Positions 10,394 to 22,672 of a stretch of DNA of 32,000 nucleotides are shown here, one piece after another. The notes under the pieces are model-generated. The model did not search any database, was not told the DNA's origin, and was given only the letters and a program-made list of their open reading frames with translations. Source of the stretch: Candidatus Harpocratesius repetitus (GTDB lineage Archaea; Asgardarchaeota; Lokiarchaeia; Sigyniarchaeales; Promethearchaeaceae); assembly GCA_021498095.1 (NCBI GenBank), contig JAIZWK010000001.1:210001-242000 (forward strand), given 5' to 3'. Each line of letters begins with the position of its first letter. Position 1 is the first letter of the stretch. The translations under genes were made by a program, and so were the position numbers.

Positions 10394-10912
10394 TTAATTC
10401 ATAGCATACTTCTTAGTCCATTCTTTAGCCTTGCTCTCAAATTTCGAATAATTATGCAATGCTTGGTCACCTGCTTCAAAATTTAATGGATCAGCAGGAT
10501 TAAAGAAAGGAGGTTCACAATGAATCTGCCCTTTCAGCGCTTCTATTACATTTGTCAGAGTCTTCGATGGGGTCCAGCCACTAGCTCCAGATTTAACATC
10601 AACCTTTCCGACAAGTTCTGGATTGATTAAATCAAGACAAATGTTGATTTTACCTGGTGGGATAGAACTATCAATGTTCGGATGCCAAATCAATGTGTGG
10701 CAATAAACGTAGCAAGGTTCAAATGGATAGTTATCACCCATCTTAATTTCAAACATAAAACTTCCACCTTCATAAGGAGTATTTGGTAATCCTTTGATTG
10801 TTAACCGTAGATGGTCGTAACTCATACCCCAAGGTTCCAGTTTGATTGTATCATCATTTTTGAAGGCTTCAACGGCTTCTGAATAATCGACTTCTTCTCT
10901 AATTTTAAACAC
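10394..10912 (-). CDS. Ubiquitin-conjugating enzyme E2 (UBC fold), eukaryote-like
   Basis: GLPNTPYEGG, YPFEP, WHPNI, catalytic ICLD (Cys codon 10637-10639), WTP, and NPADPLN...AKEWTKKYA. GTG start. Confidence 0.95.
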   Translation of the reverse strand: MFKIREEVDYSEAVEAFKNDDTIKLEPWGMSYDHLRLTIKGLPNTPYEGGSFMFEIKMGDNYPFEPCYVYCHTLIWHPNIDSSIPPGKINICLDLINPELVGKVDVKSGASGWTPSKTLTNVIEALKGQIHCEPPFFNPADPLNFEAGDQALHNYSKFESKAKEWTKKYAMN

Positions 10913-11435
10913 CTTCTCATCATGCCAAAATTTGACACTCAGATGTTGATTCGTTTAGATTACTTAATATCAAATAGTAATACTACTTACTAAATCTTTG
11001 AACTATTAAAATAATTACCTTTACCATATTTTATCAAGCGAAAAATTTTTAGGTGAGAGTTAAAAACGAATAAAAAATAAGGGTCTTTTTGCAATGTATA
11101 AGAAGGTTTTTTATTTATCTAGATGATTATTTAATAAAAAATAACTTGTCTATACTCTAATGATAAGACTTTAATTTTTTCAGATGTTCCAAAATTTTTA
11201 AAGAATTTATATTTTGAATTCTCTTTTAATTCATTTTCAATAGATGAGCGCATTTATTCAATTAGTTCTATATCCTCTCCTGTGAAAACTTCTTTACAAC
11301 GATTTGACTACTTAATGATAAAGAGAGCAAAATTAACCTGGCAATTCAACCATTCAATGATAATGATAATTTTTTACAGATCAAACTCCTATTTTTTATA
11401 ATAGAATTAAGGAAGCTGAATGTTATAAAAGAATT

Positions 11436-15924: not shown

Positions 15925-17625
15925 ATGGAAGTGAAACGCTCCAATCGATTTGCAACAATTGATTTCTTACGCGGTATCGCCATTTGGATGATGCTTCTAC
16001 TTCATCTATTAATGAGGGTCTATGATAGATCATGGGTCGATGATCCAGCTCAAATGGCGCAAGCGCGCGTAATAGTCATTGTAATTTTAGTTTTTGCATT
16101 ATATTTAGGCGGATGGTGTGGATTTTTTTTACTTATTTCGTCCATTGGAAATATGATCTCTATGCAGAAGCAACTAGCTCGGGGTAAAACAGTAAGTGAA
16201 CTGGTGCTCAAACAAGTAATTGGTGGTTTTATTCTTTTAATTTTTGCATTTTTAACTGAATCCATAATTGGTTATCATGCTTGGTTAGGAGAATTACCTT
16301 GGGGGACAGAACCTTTGGTTGATCATCTTCATAGAGCGTTTCATATGGAAACCATTCATACAGTTGCATGGTGTGTTATAATTAATGGAATCGTTCAAGG
16401 TTTACTTTCGATAAATGGAGGTTATAAGAAGATTAAGCGTAATATGATTATTTACGGTATTTTATCAATTATAATCATTGTAGTTACTCCTTTAGTATGG
16501 GATTTCGCTGCTCAAGTCATTCCGGGATATCCATTTGCGCAACCAGATGGACGACCATATATAGTCCAATATCCTGTAATTGGACAGAGTACGTTAGGAG
16601 AATATATTAAATTATTCTTCTTATTACCATTGGCGGGTCATCCAGAACCAATTTTTCCATTTTTATCAGTTTCTTTTATTGGTAGTATTATTGGGCTATT
16701 GTTAACAGAAGAACATCCTTCGGTGAAAATGTTATATTATGGTATGATAATAAGTGGATCGGCAGTCTTAATTGGACTTGGAGGCACAGGTTATGCAATA
16801 GCTATGGGACAACAAGGAATAGGTAATTTTCTCGGCAATACATGGAATATCCCAGGGTTAGATTCATGGTTTTGGTGGTTTTTAACTTTGACCGGAAGTC
16901 AAGTTTTTAGCACGTTGATAATTCTCCGGATGATAGAATTTCGAGGGAAAGCAGTTCCTTTTGCAAAGAAAACAACATATTTCCGTAGATTTGGCTTAAT
17001 TGCATTTTCTGTATATAATTTTCAATTTATTGATTTTATCCCACGATATATACTCACTAAAATAACTGGAATTGATGCATTACATTCTAGAGTTAATGGA
17101 AACTTAAGTTTGATTTTAATGGTTGGTGTTTTTCTAACTTGGGCTGTAGTAATGTGGTTATGGGAAAAAGTAAATTATATTGGTGGTATGGAATGGATGA
17201 TTTCAGTAATTGCAAAATTAATATTACCTAAAAAAGAAAAAACAAAAATTATCAAAGCTTCTTTAGAAACTGATGGAGAAATTAACTCAAAAAATCAAAA
17301 GAAAGTCAGTAAAACACCATGGTGGAAAACTGATAGAATCAACATACAAGGAACTTTATACGATGCAAATTTTATAAACATTATCCCACCAGAAAAAGTT
17401 GATCATAAAAATTTGAAGGATTCGAAATTAGCATTTCAAATTTCGCTTCTCAGCCCTTTTCTTTTGATTGGGAGTATTTTTGCCTTAGATATTGCGATTG
17501 AATCTATTGCCGTAGAAGGTAAAAATAAGTATAATAAATGGGCGATCGGATTATCTATCTTAGGTATTATAATTTTTATTGCAGGGTTCATTTTTCTAAC
17601 GTTCATGTCTGGATTGGCTCTATAG
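15925..17625 (+). CDS. Second DUF1624 / HGSNAT-like transmembrane acyltransferase, with a C-terminal two-TM (DUF4190-like) extension
   Basis: RFATIDFLRGIAIWMMLLLH signature, HMETIHTVAW, PIFPFLS and FGLIAFSVYNFQ; C-terminal SIFALDIAIESIAVEGKNKYNKWAIGLSILGII. Confidence 0.72.
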   Translation: MEVKRSNRFATIDFLRGIAIWMMLLLHLLMRVYDRSWVDDPAQMAQARVIVIVILVFALYLGGWCGFFLLISSIGNMISMQKQLARGKTVSELVLKQVIGGFILLIFAFLTESIIGYHAWLGELPWGTEPLVDHLHRAFHMETIHTVAWCVIINGIVQGLLSINGGYKKIKRNMIIYGILSIIIIVVTPLVWDFAAQVIPGYPFAQPDGRPYIVQYPVIGQSTLGEYIKLFFLLPLAGHPEPIFPFLSVSFIGSIIGLLLTEEHPSVKMLYYGMIISGSAVLIGLGGTGYAIAMGQQGIGNFLGNTWNIPGLDSWFWWFLTLTGSQVFSTLIILRMIEFRGKAVPFAKKTTYFRRFGLIAFSVYNFQFIDFIPRYILTKITGIDALHSRVNGNLSLILMVGVFLTWAVVMWLWEKVNYIGGMEWMISVIAKLILPKKEKTKIIKASLETDGEINSKNQKKVSKTPWWKTDRINIQGTLYDANFINIIPPEKVDHKNLKDSKLAFQISLLSPFLLIGSIFALDIAIESIAVEGKNKYNKWAIGLSILGIIIFIAGFIFLTFMSGLAL

Positions 17626-17801
17626 TTATAGAATCTTAAATAAAGAGAATTACAATTTTTTATGCTTTTTTTTCTATAATAATAACTTTTTGAACTTTCC
17701 ATACTATATTCTTTTTATTAATCATTTCTTTGAAAGGATTTAATGAAAATAAATAGGTGTTGGGTTAATTGCGGGACAGTTGTGAAAAAACAATTAATTT
17801 A

Positions 17802-19070
17802 ATGAAGTATCGAGTAATAGTATGCAAATATAATGAATTAGGCTTGAAATCTTCAACATATCAAACCCAACTGCTCAATATATTGATGGATTCAATTAAA
17901 AAGATATGTAAAAGAGAACATCTTACATTACAATCAATAATTAGTTTACCCGGTAGAATTTTATGTTTTTTTCCTTCTCAAGAGATTATTAAAGCATTAT
18001 TAATATTTAAATATATTATTGGAATTCAAGTATTTGCTCCAGCTATCACTTCACCTCGAAAATTGGAGATACTTTCGCAAAAATGTGTAGATTATCTTTC
18101 ATTATTATATCAAATTCATCCCTTTTCGAGTGTTACTTTAGTACTTAAAGGAAATAAAAATCTTATCAACGAATACAACTCATTTTCAACTGAATTGAAA
18201 CAGATTATTGATATTAATTGTCAAAATGCCAAACTACCTATCAATTTTACAGAAAGTTCCCCAGATATTACCTTAAGAGTAGAATTTAGGAAAAAAGGTA
18301 CATATCTGTATCACCTTGAATATCCAACGCATTTTGCAGGATTTCCCATTGAATCAAAAAAAGTATTTCTTTTACCATGGACGAATTCTCCGGATGAATT
18401 TCTCGCAGGTATGTTAATGGTAAGAAGGGGTTCAATTGTTATTCCAATTTCAATCATTCAGACAGATAATTACTCTGATAATAAAAGTAAAAAAAAAGAT
18501 TTAAAAAATGAAAGAAATTTATTAACTGAAATTGCGAAATATTATGCTGATCCTTTACCTTGGATAAAAATATCTCAAAATGAATTAAATAATATCAGTA
18601 ATGACTTTGCTCAATCAAGAAACGAAGTGTGGCTGAAAGTTTTGGAAAAATTGTGCATTCTAAGTATAGAACGCGCCTTTATCCATATGGGAAACCGTAA
18701 GCTTCATTTTAAGGGAATAATAGTGCCGAATTCTTTTGAATCAAGAATATTCAGAAAAGAAAATTTGAAGATCCCAGTTTTCTATCCTTTAATAGGCTTT
18801 TCTTTTGGATTTATTCAAAGAATAATGGAGGAATATGAACATGATCCATGGAATTTTTCATTTCATAGATTTATTTCACAAAAATCTTGGGAATCACCAT
18901 CTTTTCTATTGAGGGAAAATAAAAAATTAATAAATCCACAAAAAAAAGCCGAATTACAGTTTTCTGCTCAAAAATCTAATGTAGAAATAAATGATTCAAT
19001 AATTTTAAAAATTAAATCAAATTTGAGGGTTAATTTCATTATTGAGGAGATATTGGAAAGCTTTAATTGA
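17802..19070 (+). CDS. THUMP-domain ThiI-like protein with a degenerate PP-loop (probable pseudoenzyme)
   Basis: N-terminal VIVCKYNELGLKS (ThiI consensus IVRYGEIGLKG), a THUMP region, GFP...LMVRRG and PVFYPLIG, but SGGxDS is replaced by TNSPDE. ATG at 17802 is in frame with the track ORF starting at 17769. Confidence 0.7.
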   Translation: MKYRVIVCKYNELGLKSSTYQTQLLNILMDSIKKICKREHLTLQSIISLPGRILCFFPSQEIIKALLIFKYIIGIQVFAPAITSPRKLEILSQKCVDYLSLLYQIHPFSSVTLVLKGNKNLINEYNSFSTELKQIIDINCQNAKLPINFTESSPDITLRVEFRKKGTYLYHLEYPTHFAGFPIESKKVFLLPWTNSPDEFLAGMLMVRRGSIVIPISIIQTDNYSDNKSKKKDLKNERNLLTEIAKYYADPLPWIKISQNELNNISNDFAQSRNEVWLKVLEKLCILSIERAFIHMGNRKLHFKGIIVPNSFESRIFRKENLKIPVFYPLIGFSFGFIQRIMEEYEHDPWNFSFHRFISQKSWESPSFLLRENKKLINPQKKAELQFSAQKSNVEINDSIILKIKSNLRVNFIIEEILESFN

Positions 19071-19342
19071 TGATAAATTGATGCAAGAGGTTTTTTGAAT
19101 AATTATACAATATCTATTTACTATCTATAAATTTTACTTTCTATTAAAAACCTAAGAAATTTTGTATCTTTTTTCATTGATAGTCAAGATATCCGAAATT
19201 TCCACCATTCTTCTAAAGAATAGAAACTATTTTATATTTTCAATTATTATTACTAAAGATTCACTTTTGGGCCAAACAAGCATTTATAGGTTAGAATCTT
19301 TGATAGTCTTCTTGACCTTTTTTGGGTTATGGAGTTGAAAAA

Positions 19343-22300
19343 ATGAAGCGAAGAAATTTATCTCTTCTATTAGGATTTGTTCTTTCCTTTTCGATGTTCT
19401 TCATCGGAACACCAATTCCGCTGGGTAATGGTATGGTTAATTCAACAACTGATTCTTCTCCAGCGAGTAGTTCTAGTATTTCAAACATTGGTGTAGTAGA
19501 AGGAGATGTCATTTATTATCACTTTATGAATGAATATAGTGATCCTAATGAGGAACAATATGATCATGACTCTGATAATGGTATAGTCAGAGTTGAGGTT
19601 AGAGAAATTAATGCCAGCGAAAATAAAATCTATTATGATTTTTATTTTGTAAATAAAACAGAGTCATCTGTAGAATGGAATTGGGACTATGTGAATGATG
19701 AAATGGGAAATGATTCAGCCCGCTGGCTAGAAGATGATTTTACTCATGAAGTCTTTAATCATTCAATCGTGTTTCCTAACAATATTACTGATATGCAAGC
19801 AGCAAATGCTAGTGAAAACTTAGATCAATTGATAATGGATTCCTTTAATGCATCCTTGATATACTCTGAATATTCAGATGCTGGAAGTGAATGGAATACG
19901 GTCTATTTTGAAGTTTATCCAGATGATGGCGATGAAATATTTTCAGTATTAGTCTATGTAAATAAAACAACAGGATTAATGACTTACTATGAAGAAACAC
20001 AAGGAAACCATACATTTATCCTCGAACTAGCAGGATTTGATCTTTTAAACTATAATTTTGAAATTCCAGATAGTTTTGGTGTTGTTCCAGGTGATTGGAT
20101 TGATCGATTTTCACCTGTCTCAAGAGGTGGATCAAGTGGTGAAGATGATGATAAATGGGGATATTATCCCGATTGGTTAGAACCAAATGATTACTTTGAA
20201 GACGCAACAGATTTAAATGCAGAATTTGGTGCGGGACCAGGGACATGGCATGAATTAAATACATATGAAAATGACGATTATTATCAATTTTATGCCAATA
20301 ATGGTGATACAATTCAAGTCTATGTTAATTATGAACCAAGTGCAGATGTAGTCCTATATACTATTGATTCATTAAATGGAGCTGTAATAGAACAGACAAT
20401 TGGAGAACAAGATCCCGGATGGGAAAGTCTTAGTTGGACTGCTACTTATGACGGAATGTATTATATTAAAATTAATGGCTCAGATGGATTCTGGGGCGAT
20501 AAGTATGAATTTGGAATTAGTATAAATGGAGACTGGGGTCCAGATTATTGGCCAGATGAAGGTTCTGAAGACGATCATAATGATGGTGGTTTTTATATTC
20601 ATGAATATGTAGAATTTGTGTTTACTAATCCTTACACGCAAGAAGATGTGCTTATTATCGATCAAAGTGAATATAAATTCCCTACTATGTTACCAGAAGA
20701 TTGCATAGGAATCCAACCAATGCGTGTTGTATCACGTGTACCTGTAGATAATCCAAACATACAATTAGGAGAAGCTTGGTTCCACAAAGACATTGATTTT
20801 ACTACAACTGATTTTCTAGATTGGTTTGATCTTAATTTCATACAAAATGGTGAATTTAACTTCTCTACATATTCAATAGATTCTGATACAGATTGGGTTA
20901 AATTTGTTGGAATAATTGATGGAACAACAGATAAGTTATATTTCTTTGCTCAAAAACTACCCGGTATAGGAACAGTTCAGTTCTATACTACATATATTGA
21001 ATCTGACGATGATCCAGAACGTAAATACCAAGATATGATCATGACTATTGATTGTTCTGTTCCTGGAGTAATAAAAGAATCAGATCCAACTTTAGGAGTT
21101 TCTGAAGGTGATTGGTGGACATATGTTGTGCAGAGTGAAGAGCGATATGACGAATGGGGTTCAGATAATGATTATCACTATTATGATGAAAGTGTATTGA
21201 TGGCCACATTTACAGTAACGCATATCTTTGCATTAAACCTCACTACTATGGGTGTTGTTGGAAGCATGGAGGTACAGATCATTCATAATGATGGATCGAT
21301 TGATCCTGAAAAACACGTTGAAAATTTCGCACCGTTATTAGTTTACGACACAAATGATCCTGTATCCTTTATTACAATGGGTGGTTTAGGTGATTTAGAA
21401 GGCCCACCAGTATTACTACCTATGGTTGCTGATTGGACTACTCAAGAAACAGCCATGCTCAACTTGTTTAATTCCATGCCAAATGGTCCAGGTTCGCCCA
21501 TTGCATATAAATTCCAGACTAGTACAATTAGATTCCGCTTTGATGGAAGATTTGATGACAGTTGGCCTCAAGATGGCGGAACAGTTTACGCCCATAGAGA
21601 TTGGCAACAAGATATTACTTTGGATGTAAATGATTATGGAATGACTACATATCTAAATCAACGCCAACATGAACATGAAGATTGGTCATTTGTAAATGGA
21701 GGAGAAACTATTAACGGTGGTCGAGATAAAGAAGAAAGATTCGTAGCCTTCATGGTAAATGGTTCAAAAGGATGTGAATATGAAACAGATATTGCTTCAA
21801 TAACTGCGTTAAATTCTCTAGACTCATTGATTTGGGAACGTAGTGAATCACGACCTGCAGGAGAATGGGGTTCTGATGATCCAGGAAGCGACCCAGCAGA
21901 TAAAAGTTTTGAAAAAGTAATTATTGGAAATGTTGTTTCTACATGTGATAATTACGTTGTCTTCTTGGGCGCTCAATTCTGGAAAGGCCCTAATGATACA
22001 GACTTCCATCCTCATGAATGGCACTTAAACACTTCAGAAGAGGAAATTATAGGAAATTACTGGTATTTAGGTTCTATTCGTAAAAATGATATATGGACAT
22101 GGATAGAATCTCAAATCTTCGATATGAGTATAACAGATTTTGCTCCATTAGTCAGTGATATTGTAGAACTCTTAAATTATGCATTCGCTCCAAAAATGCA
22201 CATTACTACCGCGGATATAACTACAAATGGAAGATCCTTTACTATTAGCGCCATGAATGGAACAATTAAACATGAATTTCGATTGGCAGTTAATAGCAAG

Positions 22301-22672
22301 GGAATAATGCAAGATCTGTTTTCGGGTGAATATGATACTTCCACTGATACATGGATTCGTTGGGAACGAAATGTTCTTGTAGAAGCCCCAAGTGGATATG
22401 AAGTGGGAGAATTCTTCATGGACGATATTCCACCAAATTATGTTCCATCATCAGCTTATAATCCTCCTGTTAATACAACAACGGATGATACAACCACAGA
22501 TGATACAACCACAGATGACACAGCAACTGACGATACAGCAACAGATGACACAGCAACTGATGATACCGCTCCAACAAATCCATTCGAAAACATTCCAGGA
22601 TACACAACTAGTGCAGTTCTAATTTTCTCATTAATCGGTGTTGTGGCACTTACTTTGAGAAAACGGCGATAA
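19343..22672 (+). CDS. Large acidic cell-surface protein with repeated GVxxGD modules, a PPC-like domain, a Thr/Asp linker and a C-terminal IPGY-TM-RKRR sorting signal (PGF-/Loki-CTERM-like)
   Basis: Signal peptide MKRRNLSLLLG; GVVEGD at 19490, GVVPGD at 20078 and GVSEGD at 21095; PPC-like EPNDYFEDA...NDDYYQF...YYIKING; C-terminal NIPGYTTSAVLIFSLIGVVALTLRKRR. The likely start is ATG 19343, preceded by GGAG. Confidence 0.8.
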   Translation: MKRRNLSLLLGFVLSFSMFFIGTPIPLGNGMVNSTTDSSPASSSSISNIGVVEGDVIYYHFMNEYSDPNEEQYDHDSDNGIVRVEVREINASENKIYYDFYFVNKTESSVEWNWDYVNDEMGNDSARWLEDDFTHEVFNHSIVFPNNITDMQAANASENLDQLIMDSFNASLIYSEYSDAGSEWNTVYFEVYPDDGDEIFSVLVYVNKTTGLMTYYEETQGNHTFILELAGFDLLNYNFEIPDSFGVVPGDWIDRFSPVSRGGSSGEDDDKWGYYPDWLEPNDYFEDATDLNAEFGAGPGTWHELNTYENDDYYQFYANNGDTIQVYVNYEPSADVVLYTIDSLNGAVIEQTIGEQDPGWESLSWTATYDGMYYIKINGSDGFWGDKYEFGISINGDWGPDYWPDEGSEDDHNDGGFYIHEYVEFVFTNPYTQEDVLIIDQSEYKFPTMLPEDCIGIQPMRVVSRVPVDNPNIQLGEAWFHKDIDFTTTDFLDWFDLNFIQNGEFNFSTYSIDSDTDWVKFVGIIDGTTDKLYFFAQKLPGIGTVQFYTTYIESDDDPERKYQDMIMTIDCSVPGVIKESDPTLGVSEGDWWTYVVQSEERYDEWGSDNDYHYYDESVLMATFTVTHIFALNLTTMGVVGSMEVQIIHNDGSIDPEKHVENFAPLLVYDTNDPVSFITMGGLGDLEGPPVLLPMVADWTTQETAMLNLFNSMPNGPGSPIAYKFQTSTIRFRFDGRFDDSWPQDGGTVYAHRDWQQDITLDVNDYGMTTYLNQRQHEHEDWSFVNGGETINGGRDKEERFVAFMVNGSKGCEYETDIASITALNSLDSLIWERSESRPAGEWGSDDPGSDPADKSFEKVIIGNVVSTCDNYVVFLGAQFWKGPNDTDFHPHEWHLNTSEEEIIGNYWYLGSIRKNDIWTWIESQIFDMSITDFAPLVSDIVELLNYAFAPKMHITTADITTNGRSFTISAMNGTIKHEFRLAVNSKGIMQDLFSGEYDTSTDTWIRWERNVLVEAPSGYEVGEFFMDDIPPNYVPSSAYNPPVNTTTDDTTTDDTTTDDTATDDTATDDTATDDTAPTNPFENIPGYTTSAVLIFSLIGVVALTLRKRR
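22481..22570 (+). repeat. Coding tandem repeat, 6 x 15 bp, encoding TDDT(T/A)
   Basis: Units ACGGATGATACAACC, ACAGATGATACAACC, ACAGATGACACAGCA, ACTGACGATACAGCA, ACAGATGACACAGCA and ACTGATGATACCGCT. Confidence 0.95.

Follow-up and report, generated by a model that had tools for sequence, protein, structure and literature searches.

Where does an archaeal ubiquitin-conjugating enzyme (E2) acquire a loop as long as that of Cdc34, and which modifier does such an enzyme serve? The question is raised by a gene in the window, by which we mean the whole stretch of 32,000 nucleotides of Candidatus Harpocratesius repetitus that was analysed, and for which the initial annotation had proposed either an archaeal precursor or a convergent version of the loop of the family-3 E2s (Cdc34/UBE2R and Ubc7/UBE2G1/G2). 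Databases already list this protein as an E2, and both Asgard E2s and archaeal cascades have been published (PMC9192718, PMC5654768, 10.1101/2023.07.25.550441). In the open-access literature we found no paper on the family described below as class A, on its loops, or on its pairing with a separate E1 and tag.

A conserved enzyme with three inserts

A survey of 251 Asgard genomes sorted their E2s into three groups. Class A, at least 66% identical to the E2 of the source genome (G000), was detected in 54 of the 61 genomes of the taxonomic class Lokiarchaeia and in no other genome of the survey; a few class A proteins bear non-Loki labels in databases. Class B, about 40-50% identical to the source E2, has spacings of 14 residues from HPN to Cys and +15 from Cys to Trp, and occurs in Loki as well as in several other lineages, while class C gathers the canonical Asgard E2s, with spacings of 6-8 and +8. 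Homologues of the source E2 are labelled Promethearchaeota, Lokiarchaeota or Helarchaeota in databases, and the matching cluster of the ESM Atlas has 198 members, mainly Promethearchaeota. The class A gene of the window has the following features.

10394-10912, minus strand: E2 gene (UBC-fold), class A, 172 amino acids as called from GTG
10910-10915, minus strand: Shine-Dalgarno-like AAGGTG, containing the GTG picked by the ORF caller
10901-10903, minus strand: probable true start codon ATT, giving 169 amino acids, the usual orthologue length
10676-10684, minus strand: HPN motif, residues 77-79, invariant in 47 orthologues
10640-10675, minus strand: insert 1, the 12-residue HPN-to-Cys segment (7 in canonical and family-3 E2s, 14 in class B)
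10637-10639, minus strand: Cys92, invariant in 47 orthologues, its catalytic function predicted from the E2 family
10577-10636, minus strand: insert 2, the post-Cys loop, residues 93-112
10586-10603, minus strand: six residues, 104-109, by alignment the excess of class A over the +15 Asgard loop, which make the spacing +21
10574-10576, minus strand: conserved Trp113, invariant in 47 orthologues
10502-10522, minus strand: insert 3 after the crossover helix, residues 131-137, common to class B and absent from family 3

The reading of this frame as an E2 stands. Its 172-residue translation matches UQ_con of Pfam far over the curated cut-off (E 2e-23; 82.9 bits vs 27), His77, Pro78, Asn79, Cys92 and Trp113 do not vary among the 47 orthologues, and Asp141, the equivalent of Asp117 of E2s, is kept in 42 of them. 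A structure search with the AlphaFold2 model (pLDDT 94.4; 81 over residues 101-110) returned the UBC fold, with Z 20.5 and rmsd 1.7 over 146 residues aligned to UBE2E2 and UbcH5b. By its motifs and predicted fold the protein is a genuine, catalytically intact conjugating enzyme of the ubiquitin type, for which thioester formation is predicted.

Its translation probably starts at the ATT at 10903 rather than at the GTG at 10912, because a set of codons is conserved at the former site (ATT 10, ATC 9, ATG 9 and TTG 3 across 31 loci) and the GTG lies within a GGTG-type ribosome-binding site, which in most of the 31 loci stands 6-8 nt upstream of the homologous start codon. Alternation of ATG, TTG, ATT and ATC at a single homologous position runs through the class A loci (L062-L091), and gene callers truncate or extend class A E2 genes. 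Short ORFs of 101-120 residues at some orthologue loci were considered as broken genes, an idea that we dropped since the frame reads through from an ATT or ATC start.

The spacings first reported, with the tryptophan at +21 and an HPN-to-Cys segment five residues over the canonical one, agree with our measurements (12 residues vs 7 from HPN to Cys, and +21 from Cys92 to Trp113), as do the values with which they had been compared, 7 and +8 in the loop-less E2s that we fetched, 7 and +21 in 88 family-3 loops fetched by motif. The third insert, residues 131-137, is a feature beyond these two spacings, and the Asp141-Pro-Leu motif, of the canonical type, comes after it. Both spacings are fixed in this E2 family and are therefore not chance: among 63 close homologues with the motif, that from HPN to Cys is 12 in all 63 and that from Cys to Trp is +21 in 61, so that variable loop length among Asgard orthologues, which would have spoken against the initial annotation, is not what is found. 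The nearest paralogues do vary (+5, +15, +19 and +30), and because members of the same long-loop clade show these lengths the site tolerates insertions. The loop of the source E2 is neutral, as first described, with a net charge of 0 and two acidic residues, and the Asp of its CLD motif is kept, Asp94 being invariant in 47/47 orthologues. Past CLDL, six further residues (Asn97, Pro98, Asp105, Ala110, Ser111 and Gly112) are invariant in 47 sequences, and for that reason the class A loop is to be seen, from its alignment, as being under strong constraint. In the AlphaFold2 model it takes the shape of two helical turns plus a small hairpin that closes between residues 104 and 111.

The loop beside that of Cdc34 and Ube2G

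Class A has the post-Cys insertion of 12-13 residues, with Trp at +21, that serves to recognize family 3, and it has 12 residues between HPN and Cys where family 3 has 7. In the model, the loop appears to sit at the same structural site (loop 7) as the family-3 loop. The model aligned to Ube2G2, yeast Cdc34 and UBE2R2 over 158-159 residues, as against 143-153 for other top-ranked E2s, yet at a higher rmsd (2.6-3.3), a lower Z (13.6-18.0) and 17-20% identity, figures that come from a model as query and with no residue-level alignment. No Cdc34 or Ube2G chain stood among the best 50-60 matches of Foldseek, of the VIA re-ranking or of phmmer; a wider structure search listed them. The best PDB matches in sequence and fold are UBE2T, UBE2K, UBE2D/E and UBE2F (E about 1e-15, Z about 20, identity 31-34%), which, unlike class A, have no HPN-to-Cys insert and place Trp at +8 to +14, and the 87-sequence tree described below displayed no orthology of class A to any of them. 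When a profile of the long-loop clade was run against 1.84 billion proteins, Asgard-type E2s came first, followed by UBE2T-, UBE2D/E- and UBE2K-type sequences, and the family-3 spacing was seen in none of the best 150 matches.

The family-3 sequences came from metagenomes, where they were picked out by their flanking motif, and only the loop interior therefore offers an unbiased comparison. There, class A has 0.92 identities in 16 positions with the 88 family-3 loops, where shuffled columns have 1.05. The family-3 consensus alternates acidic and hydrophobic residues and ends in ERW (PMC3399832); net charge is -0.6 in class A vs -3 in family 3, with 1.9 acidic residues vs 4.5. In the published S73/S97/loop feature of family 3 (PMC3080790), the position of S97 is occupied by Asp94 in 47/47 class A sequences, and that of S73 by Glu65 in the source E2, by Ser in 18/47 orthologues and by Ser in 11/54 of the family-3 set; this second position varies in family 3 itself, and we did not retain it as a distinguishing mark. 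The ESP-type serine motif that follows the crossover helix in family 3 is absent, and an Asp-Pro-type motif is present instead. As judged from these alignments, the class A loop matches the Cdc34 loop in position and length alone, and the sequences are unrelated: Trp at +21 and an insertion at what appears to be the same structural site make the two families alike, whereas family 3 is set apart by its acidic loop, its Ser97, two fewer inserts and its place in a separate clade. Of the convergent version put forward at first, position and length thus survive, the structural alignment with Ube2G2 and Cdc34 being about 10 residues longer than that with the majority of loop-less E2s; class A lacks the acidic residues, Ser97 and the serine motif beyond the helix that mark family 3.

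Convergence might still have gone as far as function, the +21 loop working as the loop of Cdc34 and Ube2G does and driving linkage-specific chains on Lys53 of the ubiquitin-like tag described in the next section. The common site and the length of the structural alignment, the six invariant loop residues and the invariance of Lys53 in 11 tag sequences would all agree with such a role, as would the modification in vitro of Caldiarchaeum ubiquitin at a Lys48-like lysine (PMC5654768), although the E2 used there has no such loop described. It is harder to reconcile with about two acidic residues in place of 4.5, with a loop modelled as an ordered hairpin whereas that of family 3 is described as flexible (PMC3399832), and with an Asp at the Ser97 position alongside the loop, when S97D alone leaves Cdc34 incapable of supporting yeast growth (PMC3080790). 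We consider this community of function unlikely.

Candidate partners of the enzyme

Profile searches of the source genome gave one UQ_con match, one ubiquitin-family match (PF00240) and five to ThiF; a single one of these five is an E1 of the eukaryotic type, with UBA1-type proteins as its best PDB matches. This places two candidate partners on contig C1.

G000:C1 about 3322492-3324144 (3.322 Mb): eukaryote-type E1, about 550 amino acids, profile match
G000:C1:1085316-1085567: ubiquitin-like tag, 83 amino acids, ending in QAGG plus a cap, PF00240 match

Neither lies in the window, where, as first stated, Pfam scans of 28 ORFs revealed no ubiquitin, E1, RING or JAB gene, and where the neighbours of the E2 gene are a sirtuin and a membrane acyltransferase-like gene. 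Three long window ORFs on the plus strand (15925-17625, 17769-19070 and 19322-22672; 566, 433 and 1116 amino acids) have no Pfam match. To call the E2 an orphan is correct within these limits, and fails on a wider view: in 40 of the 52 genomes that hold both genes, an E1 of 530-550 amino acids lies at most 12 kb from the E2 (median 1.5 kb; 38 convergent). All 40 belong to one family, and because kin share gene order we count the linkage as one conserved arrangement and not as 40 independent events; in the source genome the two genes are 3.1 Mb apart. The tag gene never adjoins E2 or E1 in the loci read. Orthologues of the E2, the E1 and the tag were found, among the 251 Asgard genomes, only in the 61 of Lokiarchaeia (in 54, 57 and 51 respectively, with all three in 44), a co-distribution within one class that represents a single evolutionary event and not a statistic. 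Compared with the E1 of class B, the class A E1 (L009:7493-9145) has an insert of about 80 residues ahead of its zinc-binding CxxC, and the copy of the source genome (L009 about 7493) seems to begin without ATG, GTG or TTG.

Orthologues of the tag are 72-92% identical and keep Ile-Phe-x-Gly-Lys; Lys53, invariant in 11 sequences, is the equivalent of Lys48 of ubiquitin. Eukaryotic modifiers owe their E1 specificity to position 72. The tag carries Thr and Ala in place of the Arg72 and Arg74 of ubiquitin, and canonical Asgard ubiquitins keep Arg72; in simulations, the two arginines of ubiquitin contact the acidic loop of Cdc34 (PMC3399832). A domain like the QAGG tag is found inserted within divergent E2s derived from class A (31% identity, E 4e-10), which keep the class A HPN-to-Cys insert and have lost the post-Cys loop. 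A complex prediction for the E2 and the QAGG tag scored 0.00, which weighs neither for nor against binding. E2s with an inserted ubiquitin-like domain were observed as P0085, P0086, P0089 and L270:939-1646, P0085 being directly upstream of a gene for a DNA methyltransferase of 1330 amino acids, and domains related to the QAGG tag occur within large open frames of 450-1600 amino acids in G138 (C32, C43, C48, C70, C117, C155) and in G186:C234.

We can therefore understand class A, as far as sequences allow, as what is likely to be the catalytically intact E2 of a Lokiarchaeia-specific ubiquitin-like system with dispersed genes, predicted to pair with its own E1 and tag; the pairing of E2 and tag is argued from exclusion, from co-distribution in one class and from the fusion. 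Against this pairing stand other genes of the source genome, namely those of further Gly-Gly proteins, an operon of JAB and ThiF genes near 432 kb and an E2-E1 fusion in a CBASS locus. Might the E2 and E1 use a SAMP/MoaD-type or HxGG-ending protein, with the QAGG protein working apart? Several other short ORFs of this genome do end in Gly-Gly, and the QAGG gene is unlinked to E1 or E2. Yet other E1-like genes are available to those candidates (three short ThiF proteins, one of them in the JAB operon), whereas the QAGG family is distributed as the class A E1 and E2 are and is inserted in related E2s, and we hold the exchange of modifier to be quite unlikely.

The CBASS locus with its E2-E1 fusion and the JAB-ThiF operon are separate systems. 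The former, of type II-like organization (L010:7072-13139; G000:C1 about 2.40-2.41 Mb), comprises two nucleotidyltransferases (SMODS, DncV-like), an HNH-SAVED effector, a Cap2-type ThiF fusion and a JAB gene. The latter has four genes, including JAB and ThiF (L291:3026-6455; G000:C1 431-434 kb); E2 likeness of its gene of 274 amino acids was not confirmed by Pfam or hhalign, and a pair of related Gly-Gly-type ORFs is found at 926990 and 4123746. Outside CBASS, the source genome also has two genes with a JAMM motif, and it has candidates for RING-like proteins at G000:C1 745057, 1626800 and 3892256.

The canonical E2 and ubiquitin were not found in the 64 genomes of the source order, G000 included, and are present in all 7 other genomes of the class. 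To say that class A simply replaced canonical ubiquitin would be too strong, as G237 holds both. Canonical archaeal E2s (Caldiarchaeum subterraneum, PMC5654768; Helarchaeia, 10.1101/2023.07.25.550441) have HPN, the catalytic Cys and Trp-x-Pro in common with class A, and E1-E2-RING chemistry, with JAMM maturation of a capped tag, is expected to be alike in both cascades. Canonical Asgard E2s differ from class A by their short spacings (6-8/+8) and by their operon, whose ubiquitin retains the equivalent of Arg72; class A, with long loops and no operon, departs from the canonical arrangement, in which ubiquitin, E1, a small RING and an E2 with a short loop share one operon. An E2 match was obtained in only 1/59 genomes of one Asgard family (f8), in agreement with reports that Thorarchaeota lack ubiquitin.

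Class B (e.g. L042:1997-2524) is the sister clade, at 34-45% identity, and shares with class A each of the three inserts as well as the post-Cys loop in its first half; unlike class A, it has spacings of 14/+15 and stays in an operon with an E1 of 410 amino acids and a STAG-ending tag. This operon, which was not found in the source genome, reads tag-E1-E2-JAB, and after it comes a membrane protein whose end is RING-like. Presumably it is the Lokiarchaeal 'Ub region' of PMC9192718. Accessions two apart suggested that a class A E2 might adjoin a class B operon, and the contig, once read, did not show it. The class B tags end in Ala-Gly instead of Gly-Gly and often carry an acidic extension at the N terminus (L042:260-631, L049, L057, L058); two stand in tandem in some genomes (L044), and the Jord/Freyarchaeia version ends in Gly-Gly (L276:4472-4738).

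Descent of the loop and a predicted pathway

In alignment, the class A loop is the class B loop plus six residues, and insert 3 is common to both. The main tree, which is unrooted, holds 87 sequences, 27 of 114 rows having been left out; counter-points to it are its mere 145-171 columns and a background that omits Rad6, Ubc9, Ube2C and NEDD8 E2s. In this tree the long-loop Asgard E2s form one clade (100/96), with +15 branches outside the +21 ones, and the clade persists at 100/95 when the three inserts are removed. It joins class C at 95/92, and at 98/94 without inserts. We define this Asgard long-loop E2 clade by the three inserts and by monophyly without the insert columns; it extends outside Loki to several Asgard lineages, including Jord/Freyarchaeia. 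Because the +21 loop is nested among +15 branches, its phylogenetic placement is that of a loop derived inside Asgard, by growth of six residues from a +15 loop.

The grouping with family 3 that the initial annotation envisaged is contradicted by both trees, with and without inserts, in which family 3 is a separate clade at 100/100 and class A stands apart whether or not the loop columns are included. Forcing the whole long-loop clade together with family 3 was not rejected (p-AU 0.30), and one may imagine on this basis that the clade, ancestrally +15, is sister to family 3 and that +21 was reached twice separately. Its presence in several Asgard lineages beyond Loki would suit so deep a relationship, but both best trees join it to the canonical Asgard E2s, class A is 17-22% identical to family 3 as against 32-37% to the UbcH5, UBE2K and UBE2T types, and family 3 lacks the other two inserts, all of which renders this descent very unlikely. 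That the class A +21 loop is the direct ancestor of the Cdc34/Ube2G acidic loop, as the proposed archaeal precursor would require and as identical spacing and position may suggest, is refuted under the tree model used and can hardly be entertained, given that the +21 group forced with family 3 is rejected (p-AU 0.0016), that the loop sequences resemble each other at shuffle level, and that +21 is nested among +15 branches and confined to one class.

Returning to a Lokiarchaeia-specific system with its own E1 and tag, we may propose how it would operate. A JAMM protease would remove the residue behind the Gly-Gly of the tag, leaving a mature form that ends at Gly82, the E1 of 550 amino acids would adenylate the tag of 83 amino acids, which would pass by thioester to Cys92 and then onto substrate lysines, probably aided by a RING-like protein of the same genome. 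Next to the active site the loop would form a folded flap of nearly neutral charge, turned towards a tag whose tail is not basic. Most likely it would help to favour its own tag, E1 or E3 against their counterparts in the sister system, and this is the least certain step of the scheme. A length equal to that of the Cdc34/Ube2G loop would then be a coincidence at an insertion-tolerant site. A more ambitious picture would have at least three parallel Asgard ubiquitin-like systems, each with its own tag, E1 and E2, the present E2 belonging to a Lokiarchaeia-specific one in an order without canonical ubiquitin, with a loop of Cdc34 length that evolved independently and builds chains on the Lys48 equivalent of the tag; taken as a whole, we find it improbable.

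The first consequence of this analysis is that a false lead disappears: the claim that the K48-chain loop arose in archaea does not stand. A single database name covers all Asgard E2s, yet the class A E2, E1 and tag have the look of a separate system that differs from the ubiquitin cascades reconstituted so far, in Caldiarchaeum and Helarchaeia. This system bears on the existence of parallel, tag-specific cascades in archaea and on the replacement of an acidic loop by a neutral one; if true, parallel Asgard systems would echo the split of ubiquitin, NEDD8 and SUMO in eukaryotes.
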